Positions 17,421 through 54,251 of a DNA stretch of 64,000 nucleotides are shown piece by piece. The notes below the pieces were generated by a model. It saw only the letters and a program-made list of their open reading frames with translations, had not been told where the DNA came from and searched no databases. The translations under genes and the position numbers were made by a program. The DNA is from an uncultured Gemmatimonadales bacterium (GTDB taxonomy: Bacteria; Gemmatimonadota; Gemmatimonadetes; Gemmatimonadales; GWC2-71-9). The stretch spans positions 770,518 to 834,517 of the forward strand of contig CAVOMQ010000001.1 of assembly GCA_963697065.1 (NCBI GenBank). Direction: 5' to 3'. Numbering within the stretch: position 1 is the first letter of the stretch; the number at the start of each line of letters is the position of its first letter.

Positions 17421-17966
17421 CTACCTGAACACCGATTCCAGCTCGATCCGGCACTCGTCGGCCAGCGCCGGGTGCCGCCACGTCAGCGCCGTCCGTTCGA
17501 CGGCCGGCAGCAGCGACTCCGGTGTCCACACTTCGACCTGGCGCGCGTCGATGTCCACCACCCAGTAGGTCGGGATCCGCTGCTCCTGGTACAGGCGGCG
17601 CTTCGTGAAGCGATCGGCACGCAGGCTCGACGGGCTCAGGATTTCGATCGCGAGGTACAGTTGCCCGATGTCGGCCCATTGTTTCGACACGAGGAAGCGG
17701 TCGAGATCGGCGACGAAGAGATCGGGTTGCACCAGCGTGTCGGGCCCGAACGAAATGTCAGCCGGCGAGGCGAGGGCCGCCTCGATCCCGCCGCCGGCCA
17801 GGTAATGGTGAAGGGGGACAAACAAGCGGCTCAGCACCAGCTGGTGCGCGCCGCGGGGAGCGGGCGTCACCAGCAGCTCCCCGTGGACCGTTTCGTACCG
17901 GTTGCCGTCGTCGGGCAAGGCGCGCACGTCGTCGGCCGTGAAGTATTTCGCGAGCGGCATGGCCAT
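17421..17966 (-). CDS. Uma2 (DUF820) restriction-endonuclease-fold protein
   Basis: MAMPLAKYFTADDVRALPDDGNRYETVHGELLVTPAP...QPDLFV...LAIEILSPSS...KRRLYQEQRIPTYWVVD (PD-(D/E)XK-like). It may actually start at the second ATG, 17960. Confidence 0.85.
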   Translation of the reverse strand: MAMPLAKYFTADDVRALPDDGNRYETVHGELLVTPAPRGAHQLVLSRLFVPLHHYLAGGGIEAALASPADISFGPDTLVQPDLFVADLDRFLVSKQWADIGQLYLAIEILSPSSLRADRFTKRRLYQEQRIPTYWVVDIDARQVEVWTPESLLPAVERTALTWRHPALADECRIELESVFR

Positions 17967-18152
17967 AGTATCGCCTCGGCTTGGGCGGGGTGACAAGCGA
18001 ACATGGCGCCATGCTACGCCGTGAAGCCGCGCCGCGGGCATCGAGATCATGCCACACGGGGCCATTTTCCGCGAGTCGCAGTCGGAAAGCCGAGAACGTC
18101 GCCCGCCCGCGATAGATTTCCCGCGACACCCTGCCCGCCGAGGGCCGCCCCG

Positions 18153-18641
18153 ATGCCGATTCGCAATCTCACGCCCGCCGACTGGCCCGCCGTTCGCCGC
18201 ATCTACGAAGAAGGCATCGCCACCGGCGAGGCGACCTTCGAAACCGAAGCCCCGTCATGGGAACGGTGGGATGCGTCACACCTGGCGGCCTGTCGGTTGG
18301 TGGCCACCGAGGGCGGCGCGGTGGTCGGCTGGGCCGCGCTTTCCCCGGTCTCCGACCGCTGCGTCTACGGCGGTGTGGCCGAAGTCAGCGTCTATGTCGG
18401 GGAATCGGCCCGCGGCCGTGGCATCGGGCGCGCTCTGCTCGACGCGCTGGTTACGGCGTCGGAAGCGGCGGGCATGTGGACGCTGCAGGCGGGCATCTTC
18501 CCCGGGAATGTCGCCAGTGTCACACTGCACGAGCGGTGTGGCTTTCGCGTCGTGGGCCGCCGCGAGCGGATCGGCCGTCAGCACGGCGTGTGGCGCGACA
18601 CCCTGATCCTCGAGCGGCGGAGCGCACGGGTAGGCCTTTGA
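18153..18641 (+). CDS. GNAT N-acetyltransferase (phosphinothricin/MSO acetyltransferase-like)
   Basis: IYEEGIATGEATFE...VGWAALSP...VAEVSVYV...RGRGIGRALLDAL...LHERCGFRVVG. Confidence 0.85.
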   Translation: MPIRNLTPADWPAVRRIYEEGIATGEATFETEAPSWERWDASHLAACRLVATEGGAVVGWAALSPVSDRCVYGGVAEVSVYVGESARGRGIGRALLDALVTASEAAGMWTLQAGIFPGNVASVTLHERCGFRVVGRRERIGRQHGVWRDTLILERRSARVGL

Positions 18642-23790: not shown

Positions 23791-23872
23791 CCCACGACCC
23801 ACGACCCTCGAACCTCGACCCTCGACCCTCGACCCTCGACCCACGACCCTCTACCCCCGACCCAATGACCCC
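23791..23872 (+). repeat. Twelve consecutive CCCNNNN heptads (CGACCCT/CGACCCA); G-rich on the minus strand
   Basis: C-tracts at 23791, 798, 805, (812), 819, 826, 833, 840, 847, 854, 861 and 869. The array runs into ATG 23865 of the small ORF. Confidence 0.9.
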
Positions 23873-25961: not shown

Positions 25962-26008
25962 CAGGCGCGACCGCCCCGCGCCCTCTTTCGTCTGTCCGGT
26001 GTATGCGC

Positions 26009-26125
26009 GGGGCCGGCACAGGGTCTCGTAGCGACGCTCACTTTGCGCGCGGACGTTGGAGCCTGGCCGGTCACCGGGAGGCCGCCCCGCGCAAAGTGCG
26101 GAGCCAGAGACCCTGTGCCGGCCCC
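26009..26125. repeat. 117-bp two-tier perfect-stem palindrome (structured element)
   Basis: Outer arms GGGGCCGGCACAGGGTCTC (26009-26027) and GAGACCCTGTGCCGGCCCC (26107-26125) are 19/19 complementary. Inner arms CACTTTGCGCG (26039-26049) and CGCGCAAAGTG (26088-26098) are 11/11 complementary. Confidence 0.85.
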
Positions 26126-26164
26126 GTCGTCCACCGCTCTTGCGGGGTCCGCCCGGTCGGCCTA

Positions 26165-26197
26165 GTTTGACCGTCATGTTTAACCGGATGGTCAAAC
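26165..26197. promoter_or_regulatory. Putative TetR operator (inverted repeat abutting the tetR start codon)
   Basis: GTTTGACC-N17-GGTCAAAC, extendable to GTTTGACCGTC/GATGGTCAAAC with one mismatch. It ends 4 nt before ATG 26201, in a locally AT-richer patch. Confidence 0.6.
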
Positions 26198-26200
26198 CAC

Positions 26201-26872
26201 ATGGTTAAGGCCGCCCGCCGCCGCGCCACTGTCACGGCCCCGGTGCGACACGACGGCGACACCGAAGCGCGCATCCTCCGGGCCGCCCACGCCGTCTTCG
26301 TGCGCCGCGGCACCGCCGGCGCCCGGCTGCAGGAGATCGCCGACGAGGCCGGGGTCAACAAGGCCCTGCTGCACTACTACTTCCGCAGCAAGGACCGCCT
26401 TGCCGCGGCGGTGTTCCAGAGCGTCGCGAGCCAGCAACTGCCACGAGTGTTCGAGATCCTGGCGTCGGAACTCGACATCGAGGCCAAGGTCCGGGGCGTC
26501 GTCGGGTTGCTGCTCGACCGCCTGCTCGAAGCGCCGTACGCCCCGGGGTACATCCTCAGCGAACTGAGTCGTCACCCAGAACGCGTGCCTCAGTTCGTCC
26601 AGGCGGTCCTCGGTGTGGCGGCGGGCGGCGTGTTGCCGCGACTCCGCAAGACGCTCGGGCGCCAGATCGCCGAGCGCGCCAGGGCCGGCACGATGCGGGA
26701 CATCCCGGTGGAACAGTTCGTCGTCAACCTGCAATCGCTCTGCCTCTTTCCGTTCGTCGCCCGGCAGATGCTCTGCGCGGTGCTGCAGCTCGACGACGCC
26801 GGCTTTGCCCGCTTCATCGCCGAACGGAAACGCACCCTTCCCGACTTCATCCTCGAGGCGCTCAGACCGTGA
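26201..26872 (+). CDS. TetR/AcrR family transcriptional regulator
   Basis: N-terminal HTH RILRAAHAVFVRRGTAGARLQEIADEAGVNKALLHYYFRSKDRL. Confidence 0.9.
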   Translation: MVKAARRRATVTAPVRHDGDTEARILRAAHAVFVRRGTAGARLQEIADEAGVNKALLHYYFRSKDRLAAAVFQSVASQQLPRVFEILASELDIEAKVRGVVGLLLDRLLEAPYAPGYILSELSRHPERVPQFVQAVLGVAAGGVLPRLRKTLGRQIAERARAGTMRDIPVEQFVVNLQSLCLFPFVARQMLCAVLQLDDAGFARFIAERKRTLPDFILEALRP

Positions 26873-35926: not shown

Positions 35927-36036
35927 GCTGGTGCCAGGCCGGTGTTACGCCATAGGTTCATGTTCGATACCGCGGGGTGATCCGCCGCAGAGTAGTTGCC
36001 GTGTGGTCCGGTACAGCAATATCGCCTGGAGGTCAC

Positions 36037-36549
36037 ATGACGGACCCGGTCGCCGACAATTCGTTCCACCGGTACCAGCTGCATGCCGAAGGCGAGATCG
36101 GGCACCTTCGCGACCACGTGACGCGCATGGAGATCAACGGCCTCCGGACGGAAGACGTCTACGCCCTCAACCGCCGTCTCGAAGCGCTGGCCACGGACCT
36201 GGTTTCGATGCAGGCGGCGTTCGACGTGCAGGGTGCCGATCTCGCGGCACAGCAGGCGGCGCTCGACGCCCGGCCAGCGGATCTGGCGGAGAAGCAGGCG
36301 GCGCTCGACGCCCGTGACAGCGAGCTGGCGTCGCAGCGCGCGGCGTTCGACATCCAGGCCGGCGAATTCGCCACACGGCGCGCGGCGTTCGAGATGCAGG
36401 TCCGCGAATTCGCGGCAAAGCGGAGTGCGCTGGAAGCGCAGGCCGCCGATCTCGCCGCCAGGCAGGCGGCGGTCGACGTCCAGGCCGCCGATCTCGCGGC
36501 GCAACTGGCGGCGCTCGACACGCCCGCCGAACAGGGCGAGGTGTATTAG
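36037..36549 (+). CDS. Coiled-coil protein with 7.5 tandem 14-residue repeats
   Basis: GGAGG precedes ATG 36037. Repeats have the form xQAALDAxxxxLAx from aa 58 onward. Confidence 0.75.
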   Translation: MTDPVADNSFHRYQLHAEGEIGHLRDHVTRMEINGLRTEDVYALNRRLEALATDLVSMQAAFDVQGADLAAQQAALDARPADLAEKQAALDARDSELASQRAAFDIQAGEFATRRAAFEMQVREFAAKRSALEAQAADLAARQAAVDVQAADLAAQLAALDTPAEQGEVY

Positions 36550-37713: not shown

Positions 37714-37860
37714 CTGCTCGGCCGCCGCCGATTGCCCGCGCGCAGGACCCTGCGTTATTCGGACCGCCTCGGCAGAAATTGGATGAAGGTGATCGGCCAC
37801 GGAGCGCAACATTGCCTGCGTGCACCGTGGTTGCCGTCCCTCGGCCGCCGAGGCCATACT

Positions 37861-38424
37861 GTGGCCATGCCCGTCCCGCAGTATTACACCGCTGAGATGG
37901 TCCGCGCCCTTCCCGACGACGGCAACCGGTACGAGACCGTCCACGGCGAGCTACTGGTGAACCCCGCCCCGCGCGCCACCCACCAGGAGATCGTCAAGCG
38001 ATTGCTCCTGGCGCTGGCAGACTACCTGGGACCGTCCCACCGCGGCGATCTGCTGATGTCACCGGCCGACATCTCGTTCGGACCCGACACGCTGGTCCAA
38101 CCCGACGTCTTCGTCGGCGACCTCGCCGAGGCGCAGCGCACCGGCAAGTGGAGCGATGTCGGCCGTCTCTACCTGGTCATCGAAGTCCTGTCGCCCGGCA
38201 CCGCGCCGGCCGACCGGTTCGTCAAGCGGCGACTCTATCAGCAGGAACGGATCCCGGAGTACTGGATCGTCGACGGTGACACTCAGCAGGTGGAGGTGTG
38301 GACGCCCTCGGATGTCGCGCCGCGCGTCGAGCGCGAGTGCCTGGTCTGGCGGCATCCGTTGCTCGCGGAAAAGTGTACCATCGACATTCCCGCCCTGTTC
38401 AGCCGGACGCTCGGCGGTCACTGA
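37861..38424 (+). CDS. Uma2 (DUF820) endonuclease-fold protein
   Basis: (V)AMPVPQYYTAEMVRALPDDGNRYETVHGELLVNPAP...QPDVFV...LVIEVLSPGT...KRRLYQQERIPEYWIVD. Start is GTG 37861 or ATG 37867. Confidence 0.85.
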   Translation: MAMPVPQYYTAEMVRALPDDGNRYETVHGELLVNPAPRATHQEIVKRLLLALADYLGPSHRGDLLMSPADISFGPDTLVQPDVFVGDLAEAQRTGKWSDVGRLYLVIEVLSPGTAPADRFVKRRLYQQERIPEYWIVDGDTQQVEVWTPSDVAPRVERECLVWRHPLLAEKCTIDIPALFSRTLGGH

Positions 38425-38552
38425 CCGCCCGACGCGCCGTGCCGCGCAATCCGGATGGGCTCAGCGGAAAAAGGATGACAGCGATCGCGCACTGCATGCC
38501 ACATTGGTCGCGTGCACCCGACTTGCCTATCCCCAGCCGCCGAGGCGAACGT

Positions 38553-39104
38553 ATGGCCATGCCGATCCCGCACCACTACACCGCCGAAATGGTCCGCGCC
38601 CTGCCCGATGACGGCAACCGGTACGAAACCGTTCACGGCGAGCTGTTGGTGAGCCCCGCCCCGCGCCCCACCCATCAGCAGATCGTCAAGCGCCTGCTGG
38701 TGGCGCTCGATGGATACCTCACGGCGAACGGTCGCAGCGACGTGCTGATGTCGCCCGCCGACATCTCGTTCGACGCCGACACGCTGGTCCAGCCTGACCT
38801 GTTCGTTGGCGATCTGTCGCGACTCATGCGCACCGGAAAGTGGGCGGACCTCACCACCCTTTACCTGGTCATCGAAGTCCTGTCGCCCGGCACGGCGCGG
38901 GCCGACCGGTTCGTCAAGCGCCGCCTGTATCAACACGAACGGATCCCGGAATACTGGATCGTCGACGGTGACAATCAGCAGGTGGAGGTGTGGACGCCCT
39001 CGGATGTGGCGCCGCGCGTCGAGCGCGATGGGCTGCTATGGCGACATCCATTGCTCGACGCGGCGTGCGAGATCGATCTCGTCACGTTGTTCGCGCGGGG
39101 GTGA
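38553..39104 (+). CDS. Uma2 (DUF820) endonuclease-fold protein (tandem paralog)
   Basis: MAMPIPHHYTAEMVRALPDDGNRYETVHGELLVSPAP... High identity to the 37861..38424 product, including about 110 bp of upstream DNA. Confidence 0.85.
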   Translation: MAMPIPHHYTAEMVRALPDDGNRYETVHGELLVSPAPRPTHQQIVKRLLVALDGYLTANGRSDVLMSPADISFDADTLVQPDLFVGDLSRLMRTGKWADLTTLYLVIEVLSPGTARADRFVKRRLYQHERIPEYWIVDGDNQQVEVWTPSDVAPRVERDGLLWRHPLLDAACEIDLVTLFARG

Positions 39105-41859: not shown

Positions 41860-42594
41860 ATGAAAGCGTCAACACGCAGGCGTATGTCGATGGCGATCCG
41901 CGCCCTCCACTTCTGTCAGGCGCAGCCATCCGACGACAGCGGCTACCAGTCGCTGGTGTCGTCACTGCAGACCCAGCTGGACCAGCTCGGTCCGCTGGTG
42001 TCGCAGCAGCAACAGGGCATTTCGGACGAACACAGCATCCGGATGCAGCGCGAAGGGCTGCGCGTCGGGATCACCCAGCGGCTCCGTCACCTGGCGCGGG
42101 TGGGCAGCCTGCTCCCCGACAGCACGGCGACGCCGGCGGCCGCGTTCCGGAGGGCGCCGTTCCGGATGCCATATCCGGAATTCACCCCGCTCGCCAAGTC
42201 GATGCTGGCTCTCGCCACCGCCAACAAGGATGCGCTCGTTCCGCTTGGCCTGGGCGCCACGTTCGTCGACGACCTCACCGCGTCGGTCGCCGCGCTCGAC
42301 GCCGCGACCGAGGCGGCAAACCTGGCCCGGGCAAAGCATGTCGGCGCCGGCGCCGAGCTCGACGTGGCGACGGAGAAGGCCGTCGAAACGGTGCGCATCA
42401 TCGACGGCTTCAACCGCAACCGGTTCAAGGACGACGCCGAACAGCTGGCGGCGTGGGAGAGCGCCATCAGCATCGGCACGCCGTCGCGCCATCCGGCGAC
42501 ACCGGTGCCGGTGCCCGGCCCGGAACCCATTCCGGCACCCGCCCCGCAACCGGTGACGGGCGCGAGTGACGCGCCGGTGGAAAAGGCCGCCTGA
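41860..42594 (+). CDS. Hypothetical helical protein with Pro-rich C-terminus
   Basis: GGGAGGA 5 nt upstream of ATG 41860. GC3-rich frame. The upstream part of ORF 41515..42594 covers the regulatory region and is not coding. Confidence 0.8.
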   Translation: MKASTRRRMSMAIRALHFCQAQPSDDSGYQSLVSSLQTQLDQLGPLVSQQQQGISDEHSIRMQREGLRVGITQRLRHLARVGSLLPDSTATPAAAFRRAPFRMPYPEFTPLAKSMLALATANKDALVPLGLGATFVDDLTASVAALDAATEAANLARAKHVGAGAELDVATEKAVETVRIIDGFNRNRFKDDAEQLAAWESAISIGTPSRHPATPVPVPGPEPIPAPAPQPVTGASDAPVEKAA

Positions 42595-42673
42595 CGCGGG
42601 AACCGCAGCGGGAGCGGATGCAGCCGGTCCGCTCCCGTTGTGGTGCCGCATCCATCGAAAGGAGGGTGACGTC

Positions 42674-43501
42674 ATGACGAGCAGTGCCACACCGCGCGGG
42701 CGCACGGCGATCTTCGCCCTGACTGCGCTGATGCTGATCGGATGCTGGGCGGTGGTGATGTACTTCGGGATGTTCCGCTGGACACTGGTCGACGCCGAGC
42801 GCGGACTCGGTGCCGTGGTCCTGACGGTGGCGACAGTGGCGGCGCTGCTCTGGTGCGCCAACGAGTGCGGACTGATTACGCTGTCGTCGACGGTGAGCAA
42901 GGGGGTGTGGACCGGATTCATTTCGGTGGTGCTGGTGGGTGCCGGCGACCGGATCGCCACGATGCTCAAGCCGCCGCCGGCGGTGCTGACCCCGGCCACC
43001 GGCCACGCGCCGCGCACCATGTTGCCGCCGGCGCCGGACAGCGTGTCGCGGAGCGCCATCGCGAAGGGGCAGGTGCCCACCAACGTCGTCCAATGTTACG
43101 CCACCGCGGTCGATTCGGTCTTTGCCAGGATCCTCGGCGACTTGCCGAACAGCCAGGACGAGAAGCAGTTCGCGCAGCAGCTCGCCACCAGCGGGCTCAG
43201 GCTGCGTGACGTGGTGCGCCAGGAGCTGATGAGCGACGAATACTACGACCGTTTCGTGGCCGACAGTGCGCCACGCACGGTGACGCTGCGGCTCTACCGC
43301 ACCATCCTGGGGCGCACTGATCCGCCGAGCGAGGCGGAGCTGCAGGGACACCTGGAGAAGTACGCCGTGTGGGACAAGCGGACGGCATTCAACGTCGACG
43401 CCGCGGAGTTCGTCGGGTCACGAGAGTACATGCAGAACGTCGGAGCGGGGGGAGTGCCGGGGATCGTCGTGATGCCGAGCGTGTGTGGGGATCGGCGGTA
43501 A
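42674..43501 (+). CDS. Membrane protein with C-terminal DUF4214-like domain
   Basis: AGGAGG precedes ATG 42674. 3-4 TM helices, then LYRTILGRTDPPSEAELQGHLEKY (DUF4214-like). Confidence 0.8.
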   Translation: MTSSATPRGRTAIFALTALMLIGCWAVVMYFGMFRWTLVDAERGLGAVVLTVATVAALLWCANECGLITLSSTVSKGVWTGFISVVLVGAGDRIATMLKPPPAVLTPATGHAPRTMLPPAPDSVSRSAIAKGQVPTNVVQCYATAVDSVFARILGDLPNSQDEKQFAQQLATSGLRLRDVVRQELMSDEYYDRFVADSAPRTVTLRLYRTILGRTDPPSEAELQGHLEKYAVWDKRTAFNVDAAEFVGSREYMQNVGAGGVPGIVVMPSVCGDRR

Positions 43502-44110: not shown

Positions 44111-44184
44111 CCGAAGCGTCTCGTCGCTGAGGTGACCCGCGGCTCCGCGCCGCTCGGCGGTAGCGCATGCCGAGCCACGCGTGC

Positions 44185-44209
44185 GGGGCCATGGGCCATG
44201 GGCTCAGGG
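44185..44209 (+). repeat. GGGNNNN heptad array (4 G-tracts, canonical G3N4 quadruplex motif)
   Basis: GGGGCCATGGGCCATGGGCTCAGGG between convergent genes (stops at 44110 and 44221). Confidence 0.85.
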
Positions 44210-44220
44210 CGCTTCTACAC

Positions 44221-45981: not shown

Positions 45982-48264
45982 TCACTGCCCGCACGACGGC
46001 ATCGTCGCCGGGCACTGTGCCGGCGTGATCTTGAACGTCGCCGCGCCGGTACTCGACAGCCAGTTGCTGCCGCCGGGGTACGTCGCGCTGGCATTCGCCG
46101 TCCCGATCGCGACGTTGTTGGTATACGTGATCGGCACCACCGGCAGATCGAGGCCGCCCGGGCCGGTCACTTTCGCGGTGCAGGCGTTGGTGATCGGCGA
46201 CCCGGTGTACTTCTCGTTGGAACACGTCACCACCGTGACGGTGGCGGCCTGCAGGATCTGGAACGTCGCCGCACCGGAGCTCGGCAGCCAGTTGCCGCCG
46301 CCGGCATATGCCGCACTCGCGCTGGCGGTGCCGGCCAAGACGTTGTTGCCATAGGTGATCGGCGCCACCGGCTGATCGAGCCCACCAGGACCGGTCACCA
46401 CGGCGTCGCAGACATTGGTGATCGCCGACCCGGTGTATGTCGCGTTGGCACAGTTGACGGTCGTGACGGTGGCAGCCGGCGTGATCTGGAACGTGGCCGA
46501 TCCGCTCACCGCACCGAGATCACCGCTGCCGGTATAGGTATACGACGCGGTCGCGGTGCCGACGCCGACATTGTCGGTGTACGTCGGCGTGGCGGTGAAG
46601 TTCAGTCCCGGTCCGGTGATGGTGGCCGTGCACGGCGTGAGCGGCGCGCCGGTGTATGGCTCCGATTCGGGGCAGCTCAACGCCACCGACGGTGTCGACT
46701 GGTCGATGGTGATCGTCGCTGTTGCCTTCGACTGCTGGTAGAGCGGGCTCCCCGCGTTGCACGTCGCGGTGAACGGGTACGTGCCGGCGCCTACCGGTGG
46801 CGATCCGTCCTTGGTGCCGTACGTCAGCGTGGGCGTGACACCATTCGAGCAGCTCCCGCTGCCGGGATGCGGCATGCCGTCAAACGGCACCGTGACATCG
46901 CTTGCCGACGCGGTGCTCGGCAGCGGGTCGCCGGTGGCGGTGAAGGTCACCCCCGACTCCTGGTTGCCGTTGCCGTCGACGAAGATCACGCCCTCCGGCG
47001 CATCGCCGCCGGGTGTCGGCATTGCGGTGACGACGTTGGTGCCGGCGTCTGGCCCGAGCGTCCAGCAGACGCCGGCCTTGCCGTCGGTGTCGGTGGCGTT
47101 GCTGGCGGCGCTGCCGAACGTGCCGCAGGCATTGTCGCCCAGCGTGTCAGGAGCAATGCTCCCGCCGCCCGCGGTGACGTTCCAGCTCAACGGCACGCCG
47201 ATGAAGGGCGTCCCCTGTGCCGTATGGATGGTGACGACGGGGCGGCAGAGCGGATTGAGCGGCTCTCCCGCCGTGGTGTCGGCGGAGAGGCAGTTGTCAC
47301 CCTGCGCCGCGAAGGCCTGGTTCGGCACCTTCGAACCGAGCTTGAACTCGGTGGCCGATCCGCCCACACCACCCGACGCGAAGAGGGCGTTGTCGACGGC
47401 GCCGAACGGCGAGAACTCCGTCGCCGAGCCGCCGACGCCGCCCGATCCGTACGCCAGGGTGCGCGCATAGAGCTTGGCCGGCAGCACGAGATCGGCCAAC
47501 GTCCGAAGCCACTTCGGCAGACGGCTGGAGGCGCTCGACGAGGGGCAGCCGAGGAAGCTCGGATCGGCCGGTGGCGTGATCTCGAAGCCGCTGCTGGCCT
47601 GGTGCCCGATCCGGAGCCGCTGGAAGACGTCGTCGGGAACCTGCAGCGACGCGGAGATGCACACCGCCACCACCACCGGCTTCATCAGCGGCGACGACGA
47701 CGAGATGGTGAGGAACGTCGGGTACTGATCGAGTTTGGTATCGAGCCCGGACGGGCCGTTCGGGTCGAGCTCGTTGATGGTGAGCATGGTCGGCACGTCG
47801 ACGGTGCCCGGTCCGAGCAACACGCCCGAGTTGCCCGAGCTGCTCATGACGACCTGGGTGTCGGCGGACGGCTGGACGAGATAGGTGTTCTGCGACAGCC
47901 CGGCGTAGCAGAGCACGCTGCCGATGAAGTTGTTGATCTCCGCGGGCTTGCCCGGGAGTGTCGCCTGCATCGCCTGCTGCTCGACCCACGTGACGATGCC
48001 CTTTGCCGCAGCCTGCGCGCCGGCGGAGTCACCCTGTGCGACGATCCCCTTGAGGGTGTCGAGTTTCGCGAGCAGCGGCTGCACGCCGGCGGAGCTGCCG
48101 CCGTACACCTGCCAGGCGAGACTGGTGAGCTTGAACAGGGTGGTGCACGAGCCGAGGCCGTTCACCTCGGTCGGCCCCGACGGGGTGCCCGTGGGCGCAT
48201 TGCCGTTGCACCCCGCCGAAATGATCATGGCGGCAACAACGACCCACACGGAACGCTGGCGCAT
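45982..48264 (-). CDS. Large surface lipoprotein with four C-terminal Ig-like/MBG-type repeats
   Basis: ATG 48264. Lipobox IISAGC. The C-terminal ~300 aa form four ~76-aa modules (...YTGSAITNVCDAVVTGPGGLDQPVAPITYGNNVLAGTASA...ATFQI). Confidence 0.85.
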   Translation of the reverse strand: MRQRSVWVVVAAMIISAGCNGNAPTGTPSGPTEVNGLGSCTTLFKLTSLAWQVYGGSSAGVQPLLAKLDTLKGIVAQGDSAGAQAAAKGIVTWVEQQAMQATLPGKPAEINNFIGSVLCYAGLSQNTYLVQPSADTQVVMSSSGNSGVLLGPGTVDVPTMLTINELDPNGPSGLDTKLDQYPTFLTISSSSPLMKPVVVAVCISASLQVPDDVFQRLRIGHQASSGFEITPPADPSFLGCPSSSASSRLPKWLRTLADLVLPAKLYARTLAYGSGGVGGSATEFSPFGAVDNALFASGGVGGSATEFKLGSKVPNQAFAAQGDNCLSADTTAGEPLNPLCRPVVTIHTAQGTPFIGVPLSWNVTAGGGSIAPDTLGDNACGTFGSAASNATDTDGKAGVCWTLGPDAGTNVVTAMPTPGGDAPEGVIFVDGNGNQESGVTFTATGDPLPSTASASDVTVPFDGMPHPGSGSCSNGVTPTLTYGTKDGSPPVGAGTYPFTATCNAGSPLYQQSKATATITIDQSTPSVALSCPESEPYTGAPLTPCTATITGPGLNFTATPTYTDNVGVGTATASYTYTGSGDLGAVSGSATFQITPAATVTTVNCANATYTGSAITNVCDAVVTGPGGLDQPVAPITYGNNVLAGTASASAAYAGGGNWLPSSGAATFQILQAATVTVVTCSNEKYTGSPITNACTAKVTGPGGLDLPVVPITYTNNVAIGTANASATYPGGSNWLSSTGAATFKITPAQCPATMPSCGQ

Positions 48265-48373
48265 CTTCACCCCTGACAGGAAACCGGCCCGAACAAGCCA
48301 TGGAACGTGCCGTTCGGAGGGCGGAAGCGCAAGCGGACGGGGGGCCGGGTGCGGCAAGCGGGTCCGATCGAGC

Positions 48374-48490
48374 CGGGGTCACGACGGGGGAGACCTCTTG
48401 CGCCGCAGGTCGCAGGCACCATCGTCGAGGGGCGGCGTTCCTCCAATGCGACCTGCGGCGCGGCGAGGTCCCCCCGTCGCGACCCCCGCG
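48374..48490 (+). repeat. Fifth copy of the 33-kb palindromic element
   Basis: GGGGTCACGACGGGGGAGACCTCTTGCGCCGCAGGTCGCAGGCACC...TTCCTCCAATGCGACCTGCGGCGCGGCGAGGTCCCCCCGTCGCGACCCC, between the kinase stop (48529) and the lipoprotein start (48264). Confidence 0.9.
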
Positions 48491-48528
48491 TCACCAACGT
48501 CACCCAAGTGGCTACGGTCTTGCCATCC

Positions 48529-51270
48529 TCACTGCTTGCCCGACCCCACCAGCTGCTGGAACGCCGGATAGTCCTGCAACGATCGGAACTCCCACCCCGG
48601 GTCCTGCCGGTACCCGGCCACCCGCTGAGGATTCACGGCAAAGTTGAGCTTGAGCAGGTCGACGGCCTGCTGTTTGTCGCCGAGCGTGGTGTAGGCGATG
48701 GCGCCGTAGAGGGCGAGATCGCGATTCGGGTCGATGCCGGGGTCGCCAAGGGAACGCTGCACCAGGTGGCGGGCGCTGTCGGCGAGCGCCGGAGTGGTCT
48801 TGCTGGCCCGCGCGATCACCGTGGCGACCAGCATGTCGGAGTTCAACGTCCACAGCTGCCGCTGCGGGGCCGGGGCCTCGGCGCTCACCGAGTCGGCCAG
48901 CAGCCAGGCGCGCGAGATATCAGGCGTGACGGCTGTGGTCGTGAGGAAGAGCAGGTTGCAGCGCGCCGCGCGATAGTCGGCGGGAAAGCGGCGATTGAAC
49001 ACCTGGCACCAACTGTTCACCTGATCGAAATTGCCCAGGTCATATGCTGCCAGGACGAGTCGCGTCAACACCAGTTCGGCGCCGGTCTGGAACTCGTCGG
49101 CCTGATAGGCGCGCTGGGCGGCGAGCAGGACGTCGGTGTTGGCCGAGGTCGGATAGTTGTTGTAGAGGTGCGAAAGCGACGCCCAGGCGCCGGCCTGCTG
49201 GGGGTTGGTCCGCGTGGCGTGTTCCAGGTCGTTCTTGGCGGCGGTGATCAGCGCCGCCTTCTTCGCCGGATCGGTCTCGAGGTTCTGCAGCCAGCTCCAG
49301 TACTCGAGGTCACCGCGCAGCTCGAGCGCGTCGGCGTTGTTCGGATCGATCTGGAGCGCCGTGTCGGCGTACGCGGTGCCGAGCGTGACCCACCGGCGCA
49401 TCTCCATCGGGTCGCGGGTGATGCGCGAACGGCGATAGGCGAGGAGGCCGCGCTGCGTCACCGGATCGGGCCACTTCCGGTCGAGCGACGCGGATGCGGC
49501 GAAGAGTGAATCGGCGGCGTGGTACCCGCGGGCGATGCCTGCCGAGTCGTTGTTGCCCACCGCCGTCTCCATCCCGCGACGCGCCTCCTGGCCACGTTGC
49601 AGAAGGAGCCAGGCGTCGTTGTTCGACGCGGCGGCGCGCTGCTGCTGCAGGGTGATCTGTTCACCAAGTTGCTGGCGGATGAGCCCGGCGACGCTGGTGG
49701 CGAGCGAATCGCGGATGGCGAGAATGTTATTGGCCGGCGCGGTGAAGCTCGCGGTCTTGAGGTCGACACCGCTGCCGTCCTCGAAGCGGATCCCGACGGT
49801 GATCCGGTCACCCGTCCTGCCGACCTGGCCGCGCACCAGATAGCCGGCGCTGAGCGCGCGCGCGATGCTGTCGTCGGGGAGGTTCGCGTCGCGGAAGCGG
49901 GCGGCGCCGGCGCTCGAAATCACCGTGAAACTCGACCCGCCGGAGAGCGACTGGATCAGCCCTTCGGTGAGACCGTCGGCGACCGGCGTCAACGAGTGAT
50001 CGCTACTCGCGTCGGTGAAGTAGAGCACCGCGAGGCGATGCGCTTCCGGGCCGGCGTTGACGAGTTGCCGCGCCCGCGCCGCAGCGGCGGCCGCCGTGCG
50101 CCAGCGCCAGACACCGATGCCGCCACCAATGAGCACCAGGGCCGCCACCGCGAGCACCCAGGGGCGCCGCCACAATGGCACCGGCGCCATGCCCTGCGCG
50201 GCGTACATCCCGGTGGGGGTGCGCCGCATGGTGGTGGTCGACATGCGCATCGCCCGCATCGTGGCGGTGGAGCCGGGTGTCATGCCGAGGAGTTCGACGA
50301 ACTTCGCCGCCGTCTGCGGCCGGTCGGCGGGGACCTTTCCCATCGCGGCGTAGATCGCCTCTTCGACTTCTTCCGGCACGGCGTTCCGCACGATCCGGAT
50401 GCTCGGCACCTGTTCCATGGCGTGGCGCGCCATGATCTGCATCGAGTTCTGGCCGGTGAACGGCGGCACGCCGGCGAGCATCTCGTAGAGCATGCAGCCG
50501 AGGCTGTAGATGTCGGCAGTGGGACCGACGGTGTCGCCGCTGGCCTGCTCGGGCGCCATGTAGTACGGCGTGCCCATCGACATGCCGGTCTGCGTCAGCT
50601 TGCGATCGCCGGTCTGCGACACTGCCCGCGCGATGCCGAAGTCGGCGACGAGCGCGTGGTTGCCGCTGAGCAGCACGTTCTCCGGCTTGATGTCGCGGTG
50701 GACGATCCCCTGTTCGTGCGCGTAGCCGAGCGCGTCGGCCACCTGCAGCGTGATCGCGATGGCGTCGTCGACGGGCAGCATCTTCTCGCGGTCGAGCTTG
50801 TCGCGCAGCGATTCGCCCTTGACGAACGGCATGACGTAGAAGAGCAGATCGGCCGCGGAGCCCGAATCGTAGAGGCCGAGGATGTTGGGGTGCTGCAGCT
50901 TGGCGGCGAGGCGGATCTCGCGCTCGAACCGTTCGGCGCCGACCGAGGCGGAGAGGTCGGGGTGCAGCACCTTGATGGCGACTTCGCGGTCGTGCTTGAG
51001 GTCCTTCGCGAGAAAGACCGTGGCCATGCCGCCGTGGCCGAGTTCGCGTTCGATCTGGTAGCGATCGCCGAGGGCACCGCGGAGCCGGGAAATGGTGTCG
51101 GAGGCGGCAGCGGGGTCGGCGACGGCGGACGACGGAGTGATCGATGGCGGTGTCGCGGCCGGCGCCGGGGTCGACGCCGGCATCTCGACGGTGAAGTTCC
51201 TCCCGCAGCGATGGCAGAAGATCGCGTCGGGGGGGGGCGGGGTCCCGCAGTTGGGGCAGGTTTCGGGCAT
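48529..51270 (-). CDS. Ser/Thr protein kinase with N-terminal zinc-ribbon and C-terminal TPR-like domain
   Basis: ATG 51270 (MPETCPNCGTPPPPDAIFCHRCG). GHGGMATVF...VAIKVL, HRDIKPENVLL, DFGIAR, GTPYYMAPE. One TM helix, then a long helical-repeat region. Confidence 0.9.
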   Translation of the reverse strand: MPETCPNCGTPPPPDAIFCHRCGRNFTVEMPASTPAPAATPPSITPSSAVADPAAASDTISRLRGALGDRYQIERELGHGGMATVFLAKDLKHDREVAIKVLHPDLSASVGAERFEREIRLAAKLQHPNILGLYDSGSAADLLFYVMPFVKGESLRDKLDREKMLPVDDAIAITLQVADALGYAHEQGIVHRDIKPENVLLSGNHALVADFGIARAVSQTGDRKLTQTGMSMGTPYYMAPEQASGDTVGPTADIYSLGCMLYEMLAGVPPFTGQNSMQIMARHAMEQVPSIRIVRNAVPEEVEEAIYAAMGKVPADRPQTAAKFVELLGMTPGSTATMRAMRMSTTTMRRTPTGMYAAQGMAPVPLWRRPWVLAVAALVLIGGGIGVWRWRTAAAAAARARQLVNAGPEAHRLAVLYFTDASSDHSLTPVADGLTEGLIQSLSGGSSFTVISSAGAARFRDANLPDDSIARALSAGYLVRGQVGRTGDRITVGIRFEDGSGVDLKTASFTAPANNILAIRDSLATSVAGLIRQQLGEQITLQQQRAAASNNDAWLLLQRGQEARRGMETAVGNNDSAGIARGYHAADSLFAASASLDRKWPDPVTQRGLLAYRRSRITRDPMEMRRWVTLGTAYADTALQIDPNNADALELRGDLEYWSWLQNLETDPAKKAALITAAKNDLEHATRTNPQQAGAWASLSHLYNNYPTSANTDVLLAAQRAYQADEFQTGAELVLTRLVLAAYDLGNFDQVNSWCQVFNRRFPADYRAARCNLLFLTTTAVTPDISRAWLLADSVSAEAPAPQRQLWTLNSDMLVATVIARASKTTPALADSARHLVQRSLGDPGIDPNRDLALYGAIAYTTLGDKQQAVDLLKLNFAVNPQRVAGYRQDPGWEFRSLQDYPAFQQLVGSGKQ

Positions 51271-51342
51271 CGGGTCAAACTTACGATACGGCGGATCGGC
51301 GCGCCGGGGGAGGGGCGAGTGAAGGCGGGCAAGGCAAGATCG

Positions 51343-51360
51343 CCCATGGCCCGTGGCCCC
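51343..51360 (-). repeat. GGGNNNN heptads on the minus strand (3 tracts)
   Basis: Plus strand CCCATGGCCCGTGGCCCC, 73-90 nt upstream of the minus-strand kinase start. Confidence 0.75.
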
Positions 51361-51455
51361 GCACACGGAACTCGGCGCGCGACGGCAGGGCAGTGCGGCA
51401 TCAGGGCTGGTCTTGCGGCGACCTCCGGCGGTAGCTGAGGCCGAGTCACTCCTGC

Positions 51456-51480
51456 GGGGCCATGGGCTCTGGGCTCTGGG
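51456..51480 (+). repeat. GGGNNNN heptad array (4 G-tracts)
   Basis: GGGGCCATGGGCTCTGGGCTCTGGG, 56-80 nt upstream of the plus-strand kinase start at 51536. Confidence 0.85.
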
Positions 51481-51535
51481 CACCTTTCGGACTCCGCGGT
51501 TCTCCAATCACCTCAATTGTGGCCATTATTAAGGC

Positions 51536-53917: not shown

Positions 53918-54057
53918 GGGGGATTCTCCGGTACAGGCCGGTCGGGTGATGGCTGCGGCGAGATCCGGGAATCTCCGCCGGGATCAGCCCGCGCGCAACG
54001 CCGTCGGAGCGCCCGCTTCGCTCCCGCGCCCCGATCTGCACCCCGAGTTCCGCCTGC

Positions 54058-54096
54058 GGGGCTCCGGGCTCCGGGCCCTGGGCTCTGGCCTCCGGG
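54058..54096 (+). repeat. GGGNNNN heptad array (6 positions at 7-nt phase)
   Basis: GGGGCTCCGGGCTCCGGGCCCTGGGCTCTGGCCTCCGGG in the divergent gap between 53917 and 54252. Confidence 0.85.
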
Positions 54097-54251
54097 CCGT
54101 TCTTTTCGTTGACGCCTTCCGCCGCAGATCCTATGTTCTCCCAGTCCCTCGCCCCGTTTCTTCGAGGACCGTGCGAGTGCCGCCGCCTGCGCCCATCCGG
54201 TCAATCCCGGACAGGGCGTGTGGCTGTCGACGCCATATCAAGGAGAAGAAC

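Follow-up and report, generated by a model that had tools for sequence, protein, structure and literature searches.

A family of palindromic intergenic repeats is present in a 64,000-nucleotide stretch of Gemmatimonadales DNA (the window) and in related genomes. These elements probably form a genus-restricted and undescribed group resembling REPINs, MITEs and ERIC sequences, in which the founders of new subfamilies need matching arms and resident copies drift, amplify and vanish. The reading is supported by the multi-copy state of the elements, their restriction to one lineage, the covariation of their arms, their position 3' of genes and their instability. Palindromic intergenic repeats have been much studied in Proteobacteria. 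A literature search found no description of repeats of this sort in Gemmatimonadota, and as far as that search showed they are new for this common, mostly uncultured soil phylum.

The initial annotation proposed that one element, c5 (Table 1), joins four copies of a repeat at 33.2-33.9 kb as the fifth, and it does. With filters off, a covariance model recovers five full copies in the whole window and no more, and the 16-mer TTCCTCCAATGCGACC occurs five times (with up to three mismatches) compared with 0.53 occurrences expected in the window. Every string that had been quoted for c5 was found at its coordinates. The inner arms pair at all 15 positions, the outer arms (GGGGAGACCTC at 48387-48397 and GAGGTCCCCCC at 48465-48475) are 91% complementary with one bulged A, and pairing continues outward over 19 nt at 89% (48372-48390 with 48471-48489). 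This makes c5 a hairpin-forming repeat of 115-130 nt with a near-perfect 115-nt hairpin. Folded as RNA, its predicted stability is -96.2 kcal/mol on the plus strand and -95.8 kcal/mol on the minus strand (z about -9), compared with about -61 +/- 3.8 kcal/mol for shuffled versions, none of which (0 of 200) matches the native sequence. Under DNA parameters the two strands come out at -51 and -53 (z -6.7 and -7.6). The core enclosed by the arms is asymmetric and therefore gives the element a defined orientation.

Table 1. Coordinates of the elements, their parts and the flanking genes in the window
Feature	Position	Strand	Remarks
Distant wider-family member	25998..26132	-	arms GGGGCCGGCACAGGGTCTCTGGC; unrelated core; predicted fold -99 to -102 kcal/mol
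ABC-2 permease gene	31957..33120	+	387 aa; upstream of 33-kb cluster
208-bp tandem array carrying c1-c3	33191..33737	+	2.6 units, 95% matches
c1, subfamily A	33193..33321	+	covariance model 120.2 bits
c2, subfamily A	33401..33529	+	covariance model 122.5 bits
c3, subfamily A	33609..33737	+	covariance model 130.2 bits
c4, subfamily B	33755..33887	-	covariance model 111.4 bits; inverted; outer left end degenerate
LPG-synthase-type membrane protein gene	34184..35926	+	downstream of 33-kb cluster
Lipoprotein gene	45982..48264	-	760 aa; signal MRQRSVWVVVAAMIISAGC; ATG at 48264
c5, whole element, subfamily B	48367..48497	+	covariance model 123.9 bits, E 1.4e-23
c5, palindrome proper	48372-48489		imperfect; encloses 32-nt asymmetric core
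c5, left arm, outer part	48372..48399	+	GCCGGGGTCACGACGGGGGAGACCTC + TT (T.G wobble site 48398-48399)
GTCAC direct repeat, left	48378..48382	+	inside conserved left arm; MAG sequence retained to about here
c5, inner 5' arm	48400..48414	+	GCGCCGCAGGTCGCA; 15 nt, 100% complementary to partner
c5, asymmetric core	48415..48446	+	GGCACC, variable ~17 nt, TTCCTCCAA; complement GGAGGAA
c5, inner 3' arm	48447..48461	+	TGCGACCTGCGGCGC
c5, right arm, outer part	48462..48489	+	GGC (wobble partners and bulged C), then GAGGTCCCCCCGTCGCGACCCCCGC
GTCAC direct repeat, right	48499..48503	+	
Ser/Thr protein kinase gene with zinc ribbon	48529..51507	-	stop codon 48529, ~30 nt from c5

The location of c5 between the kinase and lipoprotein genes, both on the minus strand, was also described correctly, apart from the gap being 264 nt instead of 265. 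A block that lies between c5 and the lipoprotein gene is conserved in all three relatives and is presumed to be the lipoprotein promoter and 5' leader. The lipoprotein gene contains 228-nt tandem repeats (46019-46474), and its homologues span 610 to 1065 aa, which suggests that the number of domain repeats varies. A 56-nt motif (CGGCGGTAGC...GGGGCCATGGGC...) occurs three times in the window (44155-44210, 51426-51481 and 54042-54097), one copy being at the 5' end of the kinase gene. At 42557-43501 this Gemmatimonadales DNA also encodes a phycobilisome-linker (PBS_linker_poly) domain protein, and the relatives conserve it.

The stems of c5 had been contrasted with those of the 33-kb copies, on the grounds that both strands of each stem had changed together. 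The paired changes are real but they are not peculiar to c5. The fourth copy, c4, lies on the minus strand and already shows the "fifth-copy" arms, and its identity to c5 is 90-94%. The contrast is therefore between subfamily A (c1-c3) and subfamily B (c4 and c5) and represents one divergence. Two inner-stem pairs and one outer-stem pair differ on both sides between A and B (G-C to C-G, C-G to A-T and C-G to G-C), as does one more pair in a small apical helix. The remaining differences are one-sided and mend mismatches that A has. The shoulders beside the stems were thought to be invariant, but c1 has one substitution in each (GGTCGCAGGTACC and TTCCTCCATTGCGACC).

Pairing between the arms is preserved to a degree that chance does not explain. 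RNAalifold predicts 40 pairs from a MAFFT alignment of nine copies, and seven of these are changed on both sides. When ten copies (five in the window and five from two related genomes) are placed on the model, 10 of the 40 stem pairs show two-sided changes (26 cells) and 93.3% of cells pair, compared with 87.5 +/- 0.9 in shuffles; the covariation values are reached by 0-2 of 500 shuffles and sliding the partner column abolishes the signal, although all of these ten-copy figures overstate independence because the alignment was fitted to the structure and there are only three subfamilies. The outcome depends on which copies are compared. Between subfamilies, nearly all differences keep the structure. 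For example, c5 and c3 differ by five double-sided changes, two harmless one-sided changes, one repair and no breaks, and the comparison of c3 with L004, a divergent copy discussed below, gives seven double-sided changes, six harmless one-sided changes and four broken pairs. Within a subfamily or between orthologues, in contrast, the differences are mostly uncompensated breaks. Four pairs are broken and none compensated between c5 and c4, c4 and its orthologue L002c each have three pairs broken in that copy alone, and TGCGACC has become TGCTCCC in both B copies of the related metagenome-assembled genome (MAG), which opens the innermost stem. Unpaired stem differences had been named in advance as the observation that would count against selection on the hairpin. 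Differences between subfamilies almost all keep the pairing, whereas those within subfamilies are mostly breaks.

Since recent changes are mostly uncompensated, the resident copies are not uniformly held as hairpins. One exception is c5 and its orthologue L019, which are both hairpins (-96 and -95 kcal/mol). Pairing in these two has been kept via the exchange of an A-T for a G-C pair, the deletion of a single base on both sides and a register shift, and the spacer beside them has diverged until it can no longer be aligned. Such a pattern is easier to reconcile with maintenance at the locus, whether through function or through arm-to-arm repair, than with free decay. What then of the original conclusion that there is selection on the hairpin and not mere recent duplication? 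It holds to the extent that pairing is preserved beyond chance and that there is no simple duplication pattern. It is weakened by the small number of independent events and it fails for the recent changes. It also does not identify an RNA, because two inverted sites for one protein, or templated repair from arm to arm, would covary likewise. One lesson for genome scans is that covarying arms of a DNA palindrome do not, on their own, constitute evidence for a structured RNA. Another is that compensation between subfamilies, set against decay within them, separates the need for a hairpin to found a lineage from the need for a hairpin at every locus.

Weaker matches to the covariance model led to additional palindromes (window 25998-26132, L004 3613-3744 and elements in two more relatives, L024 and L026). 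The 14 elements of this wider family have similar arms, and cores that are unrelated between subfamilies. The inverted arms are about 30-45 nt long with the consensus GGGG-T-CACGAC-GGGG..CCTCTTGCG, which in the 14-element alignment reads GGGG(T)CACGAC(R)GGG..CCTC-T(T/G)GCG. Arm sequence is conserved over at least five subfamilies, 22 arm columns have two or more types of Watson-Crick pair, and the predicted folds range from -68 to -102 kcal/mol. The core blocks GGTCGCAGGCACC and TTCCTCCAATGCGACC hardly differ among subfamilies A, B and C, whereas the stems vary, as do the ~17 nt between the blocks. However, the arms align across the wider family while this "invariant" core is wholly replaced, so it is the arms and not the core that are conserved over the wide range. 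There are six elements at three loci in the 64 kb of the window and 14 in 201,660 nt of DNA from the clade. An nhmmer search of the same 201,660 nt with an arm profile found no further full copies, only solo arm remnants by the ABC-2 stop codon and extra tandem half-arms in L024. The distant element at 26 kb (25998-26132) is missing from the orthologous gap in L024. Close to it is a palindrome of another kind (TTTGACCGTCATGTTTAACCGGATGGTCAAA, 26165-26215), just upstream of a TetR-family gene (26201-26872). This one is probably a TetR operator because it is conserved in L024 and the rest of the gap is not.

The two arms are not simple mirror images. The same combination of a bulge and wobbles occurs in 12 of the 14 elements, with CTC-TKGC in the left arm and CTCGYMGC in the complement of the right arm. 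This places two T.G wobbles beside a bulged C (in the 3' arm) on what can be called the forward strand of these asymmetric elements. A conserved site of this kind points to some strand-specific recognition, and it speaks against the arms being simply homogenised. The latter point matters because compensation might not reflect structural selection at all. Template-switching at quasipalindromes, or gene conversion from arm to arm, could mimic it, and two reports document template-switch mutations that perfect imperfect inverted repeats as hotspots in E. coli (PMC7202029, PMC6357072). The differences between c5 and subfamily A are partly one-sided and mismatch-removing, and the signal is symmetric between strands, both of which suit this explanation. 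However, homogenisation should erase differences between the arms, yet the left/right asymmetry lasts and several copies keep long-standing mismatches. The explanation also does not account for the multi-copy state or for the conservation of arms between loci, and it is judged to be quite unlikely.

Which strand or molecule folds is less easily read. Of the five copies that were folded both ways, four are equally stable on the two strands. Only L004 is clearly one-sided, with seven G.U pairs compared with two A.C mismatches, and predicted stabilities of -84.9 kcal/mol on the strand that is sense to the upstream gene and -67.0 kcal/mol on the other. G.U outnumbers A.C in the narrow family (39 versus 11 cells, or 20 versus 11 without the two conserved T.G pairs) and across wider-family arms (32 versus 21 in a hand tally), but these counts are not decisive because the copies are related. 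RNA, single-stranded DNA and paired protein sites are indistinguishable from the present data, and the bulge and wobble do not separate single-stranded DNA from RNA. Three other ideas about the element were discarded. A small open reading frame starting from GGAGGAA on the complement has the wrong spacing and an ATG that is not conserved in c4. A tRNA-like or T-arm origin of GGTCGCAGG was ruled out on inspection. Ends of the Tn3 type, with GGGG tips and a 5-bp duplication, were a third candidate, but a TAAG-type inner motif is missing and so is any duplication.

Every element is found some 30-80 nt on the 3' side of a stop codon. They occur in either orientation, between co-directional or convergent genes and sometimes in tandem or inverted clusters. 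Promoter and terminator scans found no promoter-like site or U-tract terminator by any copy, and there is no T-run after the c5 hairpin on either strand. One way to view this position is that each hairpin is a cis-acting RNA selected at its own locus, which stops 3' exonucleases or read-through in the 3' UTR as a terminator (meaning one independent of a U-tract), a stabiliser or an insulator. Compensation would then be the product of selection at the RNA level. The placement of every copy just 3' of a stop codon agrees with this, as does that of c5 between the kinase stop and the presumed lipoprotein promoter block. So do the ~-95 kcal/mol that c5 and L019 keep through compensated and re-registered pairs beside their unalignable spacer, and the stronger fold of L004 on the sense strand. 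What does not fit is that copies lie in both orientations to transcription, that four of five fold alike on both strands, and that a relative without the element at the kinase locus has nothing in its place. In addition, resident copies at the 33-kb locus have uncompensated breaks, the arms are conserved in sequence beyond what pairing requires, and there is no U-tract. Selection of an RNA hairpin at each locus is therefore rather unlikely as the main explanation. Nevertheless, such a role is compatible with the repeat-family explanation and not exclusive of it.

A different RNA-based proposal is a family of trans-acting sRNA genes with an apical CCUCC loop (UUCCUCCAAUG) that pairs with Shine-Dalgarno sequences of target mRNAs. 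This draws on the loop, which resembles an anti-Shine-Dalgarno sequence, and on the core blocks being near-invariant in A, B and C while the stems vary. However, neither a promoter-like site nor a terminator adjoins any copy, the core is altered in L019 (TTCCACCACTG) and in L002a (GGCATC), and the cores of the wider family are entirely different. The element has also been deleted in a close relative, and a near-perfect stem of at least 40 bp is atypical of bacterial sRNAs. Together these observations make an sRNA family very improbable.

The narrow family appears to be restricted to close relatives. A core-anchored pattern was used to scan one genome per GTDB species and gave four matches, two of which were rejected as chance. 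The real matches were in only one genome, the uncultured Gemmatimonadales MAG MFD05502.bin.2.102 (contig CAVWJI010000004.1), where the pattern matched only two loci, so the narrow family is low-copy. One of its loci (L002) is 88.8% identical to the window at 28.4-33.2 kb over 4.8 kb, and homologues of the neighbouring proteins bear the names Gemmatimonadaceae or Gemmatimonadota. This MAG has four copies. Three are at the orthologous ABC-2 locus (B-, A+, B-), and the fourth is the divergent copy at L004, which represents subfamily C and lies at a locus other than ABC-2. A soil contig from JGI (L019), with a lipoprotein 80% identical to that of the window, has one copy that is orthologous to c5. 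No element was found in 53 kb of the kinase-lipoprotein locus from three sources where the lipoprotein is only about 50% identical (L021-L023). Another contig, the short-read L020 from Logan (ERR11523645), encodes a 100% identical lipoprotein and comes from the same species. It ends inside the element (1-45), and hairpin repeats of this kind thus break assemblies.

Searches further afield found nothing of the kind. A loop-anchored pattern matched 12 loci in public metagenome contigs, all of them by chance and including a recurrent gut-phage-like sequence. Viral contigs searched with an arm pattern, and plasmids searched with BLAST, had nothing relevant. No Rfam 15 family reached its gathering score for any copy, the window's one match being a tRNA, and permissive thresholds gave only generic long-hairpin miRNA models far under their cut-offs.

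Wider-family elements lie just 3' of the ABC-2 permease gene in all four related genomes, but the locus is rearranged in every genome compared. The window has three tandem A units and one B, with c3 and c4 forming a conserved A(+)/B(-) pair. In the MAG the order is B, a small gene, A and B, with a single unit where the window has the 208-bp array. L024 has tandem half-arms, and L026 has a single element of another subfamily. In L026 there is a GGGATGA run right after the ABC-2 stop codon (2825-2860), and an intergenic gap of the window (23791-23863) contains about ten tandem heptamers (CCCTCGA / CCCACGA) that read on the minus strand as GGGTCGA repeats, a G3N4 motif of the G-quadruplex type. 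On the other side of the cluster, a small open reading frame (35977-36549, plus strand) between the LPG-synthase gene and the next gene contains eight tandem 42-nt (14-residue) repeats at 36178-36519. The MAG has a 170-aa gene at this position and L024 has none.

A 124-aa gene for a small secreted or membrane protein is intact at this locus in two relatives (L002 5200-5574; L026 3359-3652) and has been lost in the window. The array spacer (33322-33400, and likewise in each 208-bp unit) keeps a ribosome-binding site and the first codons of the lost gene, with its ATG changed to CTG, and this remnant is identical to L002 at 24 of 29 nt. Since the gene is intact in two relatives, it was lost through deletion between copies of the element. 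The bracketing of this gene by two inverted copies in a relative, and its absence from the window, might also suggest that the elements are folded-strand recombination sites (an integron attC or the site of another recombinase) with small genes as cassettes. The imperfect palindrome, conserved extrahelical base and variable centre would be appropriate for that. However, there are no RYYYAAC / GTTRRRY boxes (the ends are GGGGTCACGAC ... GTCGTGACCCC), orientations are mixed, no integrase was found among the genes scanned in the window or called in syntenic loci, and L026 has the small gene without bracketing copies. A recombination site is thus hardly credible.

A second loss concerns c5. The orthologous site in the MAG (L017) is a 156-nt gap that lacks the 116-120 nt between two GTCAC repeats but retains CCGGGG(GTCGC), the first ~11 nt of the left arm. 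These retained bases belong to an arm that is common to unrelated loci, and so L017 is a deletion and not a site that was never occupied. Slippage between the GTCAC repeats across the hairpin could have produced it. No target-site duplication or never-occupied counterpart was found for any copy. A Pfam scan of the window genes, together with the genes called in syntenic loci, found no transposase, RAYT or integrase. These negatives count against the repeat-family explanation, as do the low copy number of the narrow family and the missing GTAG head. Three paralogous putative endonucleases of the Uma2 family (PF05685) are encoded in the window (37752-39057 and 17421-18254). Two of them form a tandem pair with a period of 692 nt, the third is inverted at a distance of about 20 kb, and the MAG has a PIN-domain gene nearby. 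Gene loss, tandem amplification and assembly breaks all have hotspots at the repeat elements.

How might such a family work? The favoured repeat-family explanation can be put as follows. In each non-coding element, two inverted arms surround a subfamily-specific, asymmetric core. Copying or retention of the founder of a new subfamily may have depended on an intact hairpin or on two matching ends, and this proposed need would account for the compensated differences between subfamilies. Resident copies would later drift, gain uncompensated mismatches or be deleted. The form that is recognised is perhaps a folded single strand, either DNA during replication or transposition or RNA in the 3' UTR. 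By analogy with REP/BIME and ERIC sequences, the stable hairpin, once transcribed, is probably a barrier or insulator at the 3' end, between neighbouring genes, and such a role is plausible and does not conflict with the repeat-family explanation. In a bolder proposal, Gemmatimonadota would have a new strand-specific system, either a replicator or an RNA-protein one, of which the conserved asymmetry is the mark. Together with the near-invariant core blocks, the asymmetry, in which the two wobbles and the bulged base keep a constant distance from the tip, could mean that one specific folded strand is recognised by a dedicated protein. The partner might be a transposase or recombinase acting on single strands, of the HUH/Y1 type or another, that has gone unrecognised in this phylum. 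This idea is unlikely. If true, it would amount to a new REPIN-like replicator system outside Proteobacteria and Cyanobacteria or, alternatively, to structured 3'-UTR RNAs of a new class that have a protein partner.

Comparison with known systems places the elements near several of them. Like attC sites they are folded imperfect palindromes 3' of open reading frames, in which the centre varies and a bulged base is conserved, but they are without an R-box consensus, a uniform orientation and a neighbouring intI. Intrinsic terminators combine a GC-rich hairpin with a U-tract after it, and no U-tract accompanies any copy. As in MITEs, the terminal inverted repeats are conserved among copies. However, there is no target-site duplication at the copy ends, and the "empty" site L017 retains arm sequence. 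Membership of the MITEs therefore fails on target-site duplication. ERIC/IRU sequences in enterobacteria and Correia-type MITEs in Neisseria are imperfect palindromes as well, some 100-150 bp long and situated in intergenic DNA that is transcribed. They occur in both orientations, their RNA hairpins can alter the stability or processing of flanking mRNA, and their presence varies between relatives. The Gemmatimonadales elements are likewise imperfect palindromes found in both orientations with variable presence among relatives, but they belong to another phylum and do not resemble any of these in sequence. Correia elements are known for a TA target duplication and for IHF and promoter features, whereas a target duplication could not be defined for the Gemmatimonadales repeats. 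BIME clusters in E. coli consist of alternating REP types. The alternation of opposed subfamilies (A+ / B-), the 208-bp tandem array and the variation in unit number between close relatives are reminiscent of these clusters, although the Gemmatimonadales units are 4-5 times longer than REPs and binding proteins are known for none of them.

REPINs, which are hairpin-forming doublets of REP sequences mobilised by RAYT transposases, have conserved ends, a less conserved spacer and frequent compensatory changes, and their asymmetric excision leaves behind about 6 bp from one end (Bertels & Rainey 2011, PMC3116915). Similarly, the elements described here have two conserved inverted ends around a variable spacer, would form a hairpin of ~100 nt in single-stranded DNA or mRNA, and are extragenic and clustered with common compensatory changes. 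Even the L017 remnant resembles an asymmetric excision product. On the other hand, inspection of the arms revealed neither a GTAG/GTGG head nor a conserved internal palindrome, and pairing inside one arm (5 bp, GACCT/AGGTC) occurs in subfamily B alone. There is also no sequence similarity, no RAYT among the genes scanned in the 64-kb window, and the narrow family is low-copy. Membership of the REP-RAYT system is thus not established: the REP head and self-palindrome are missing, whereas the architecture, the compensatory changes and the excision-like remnant all fit.
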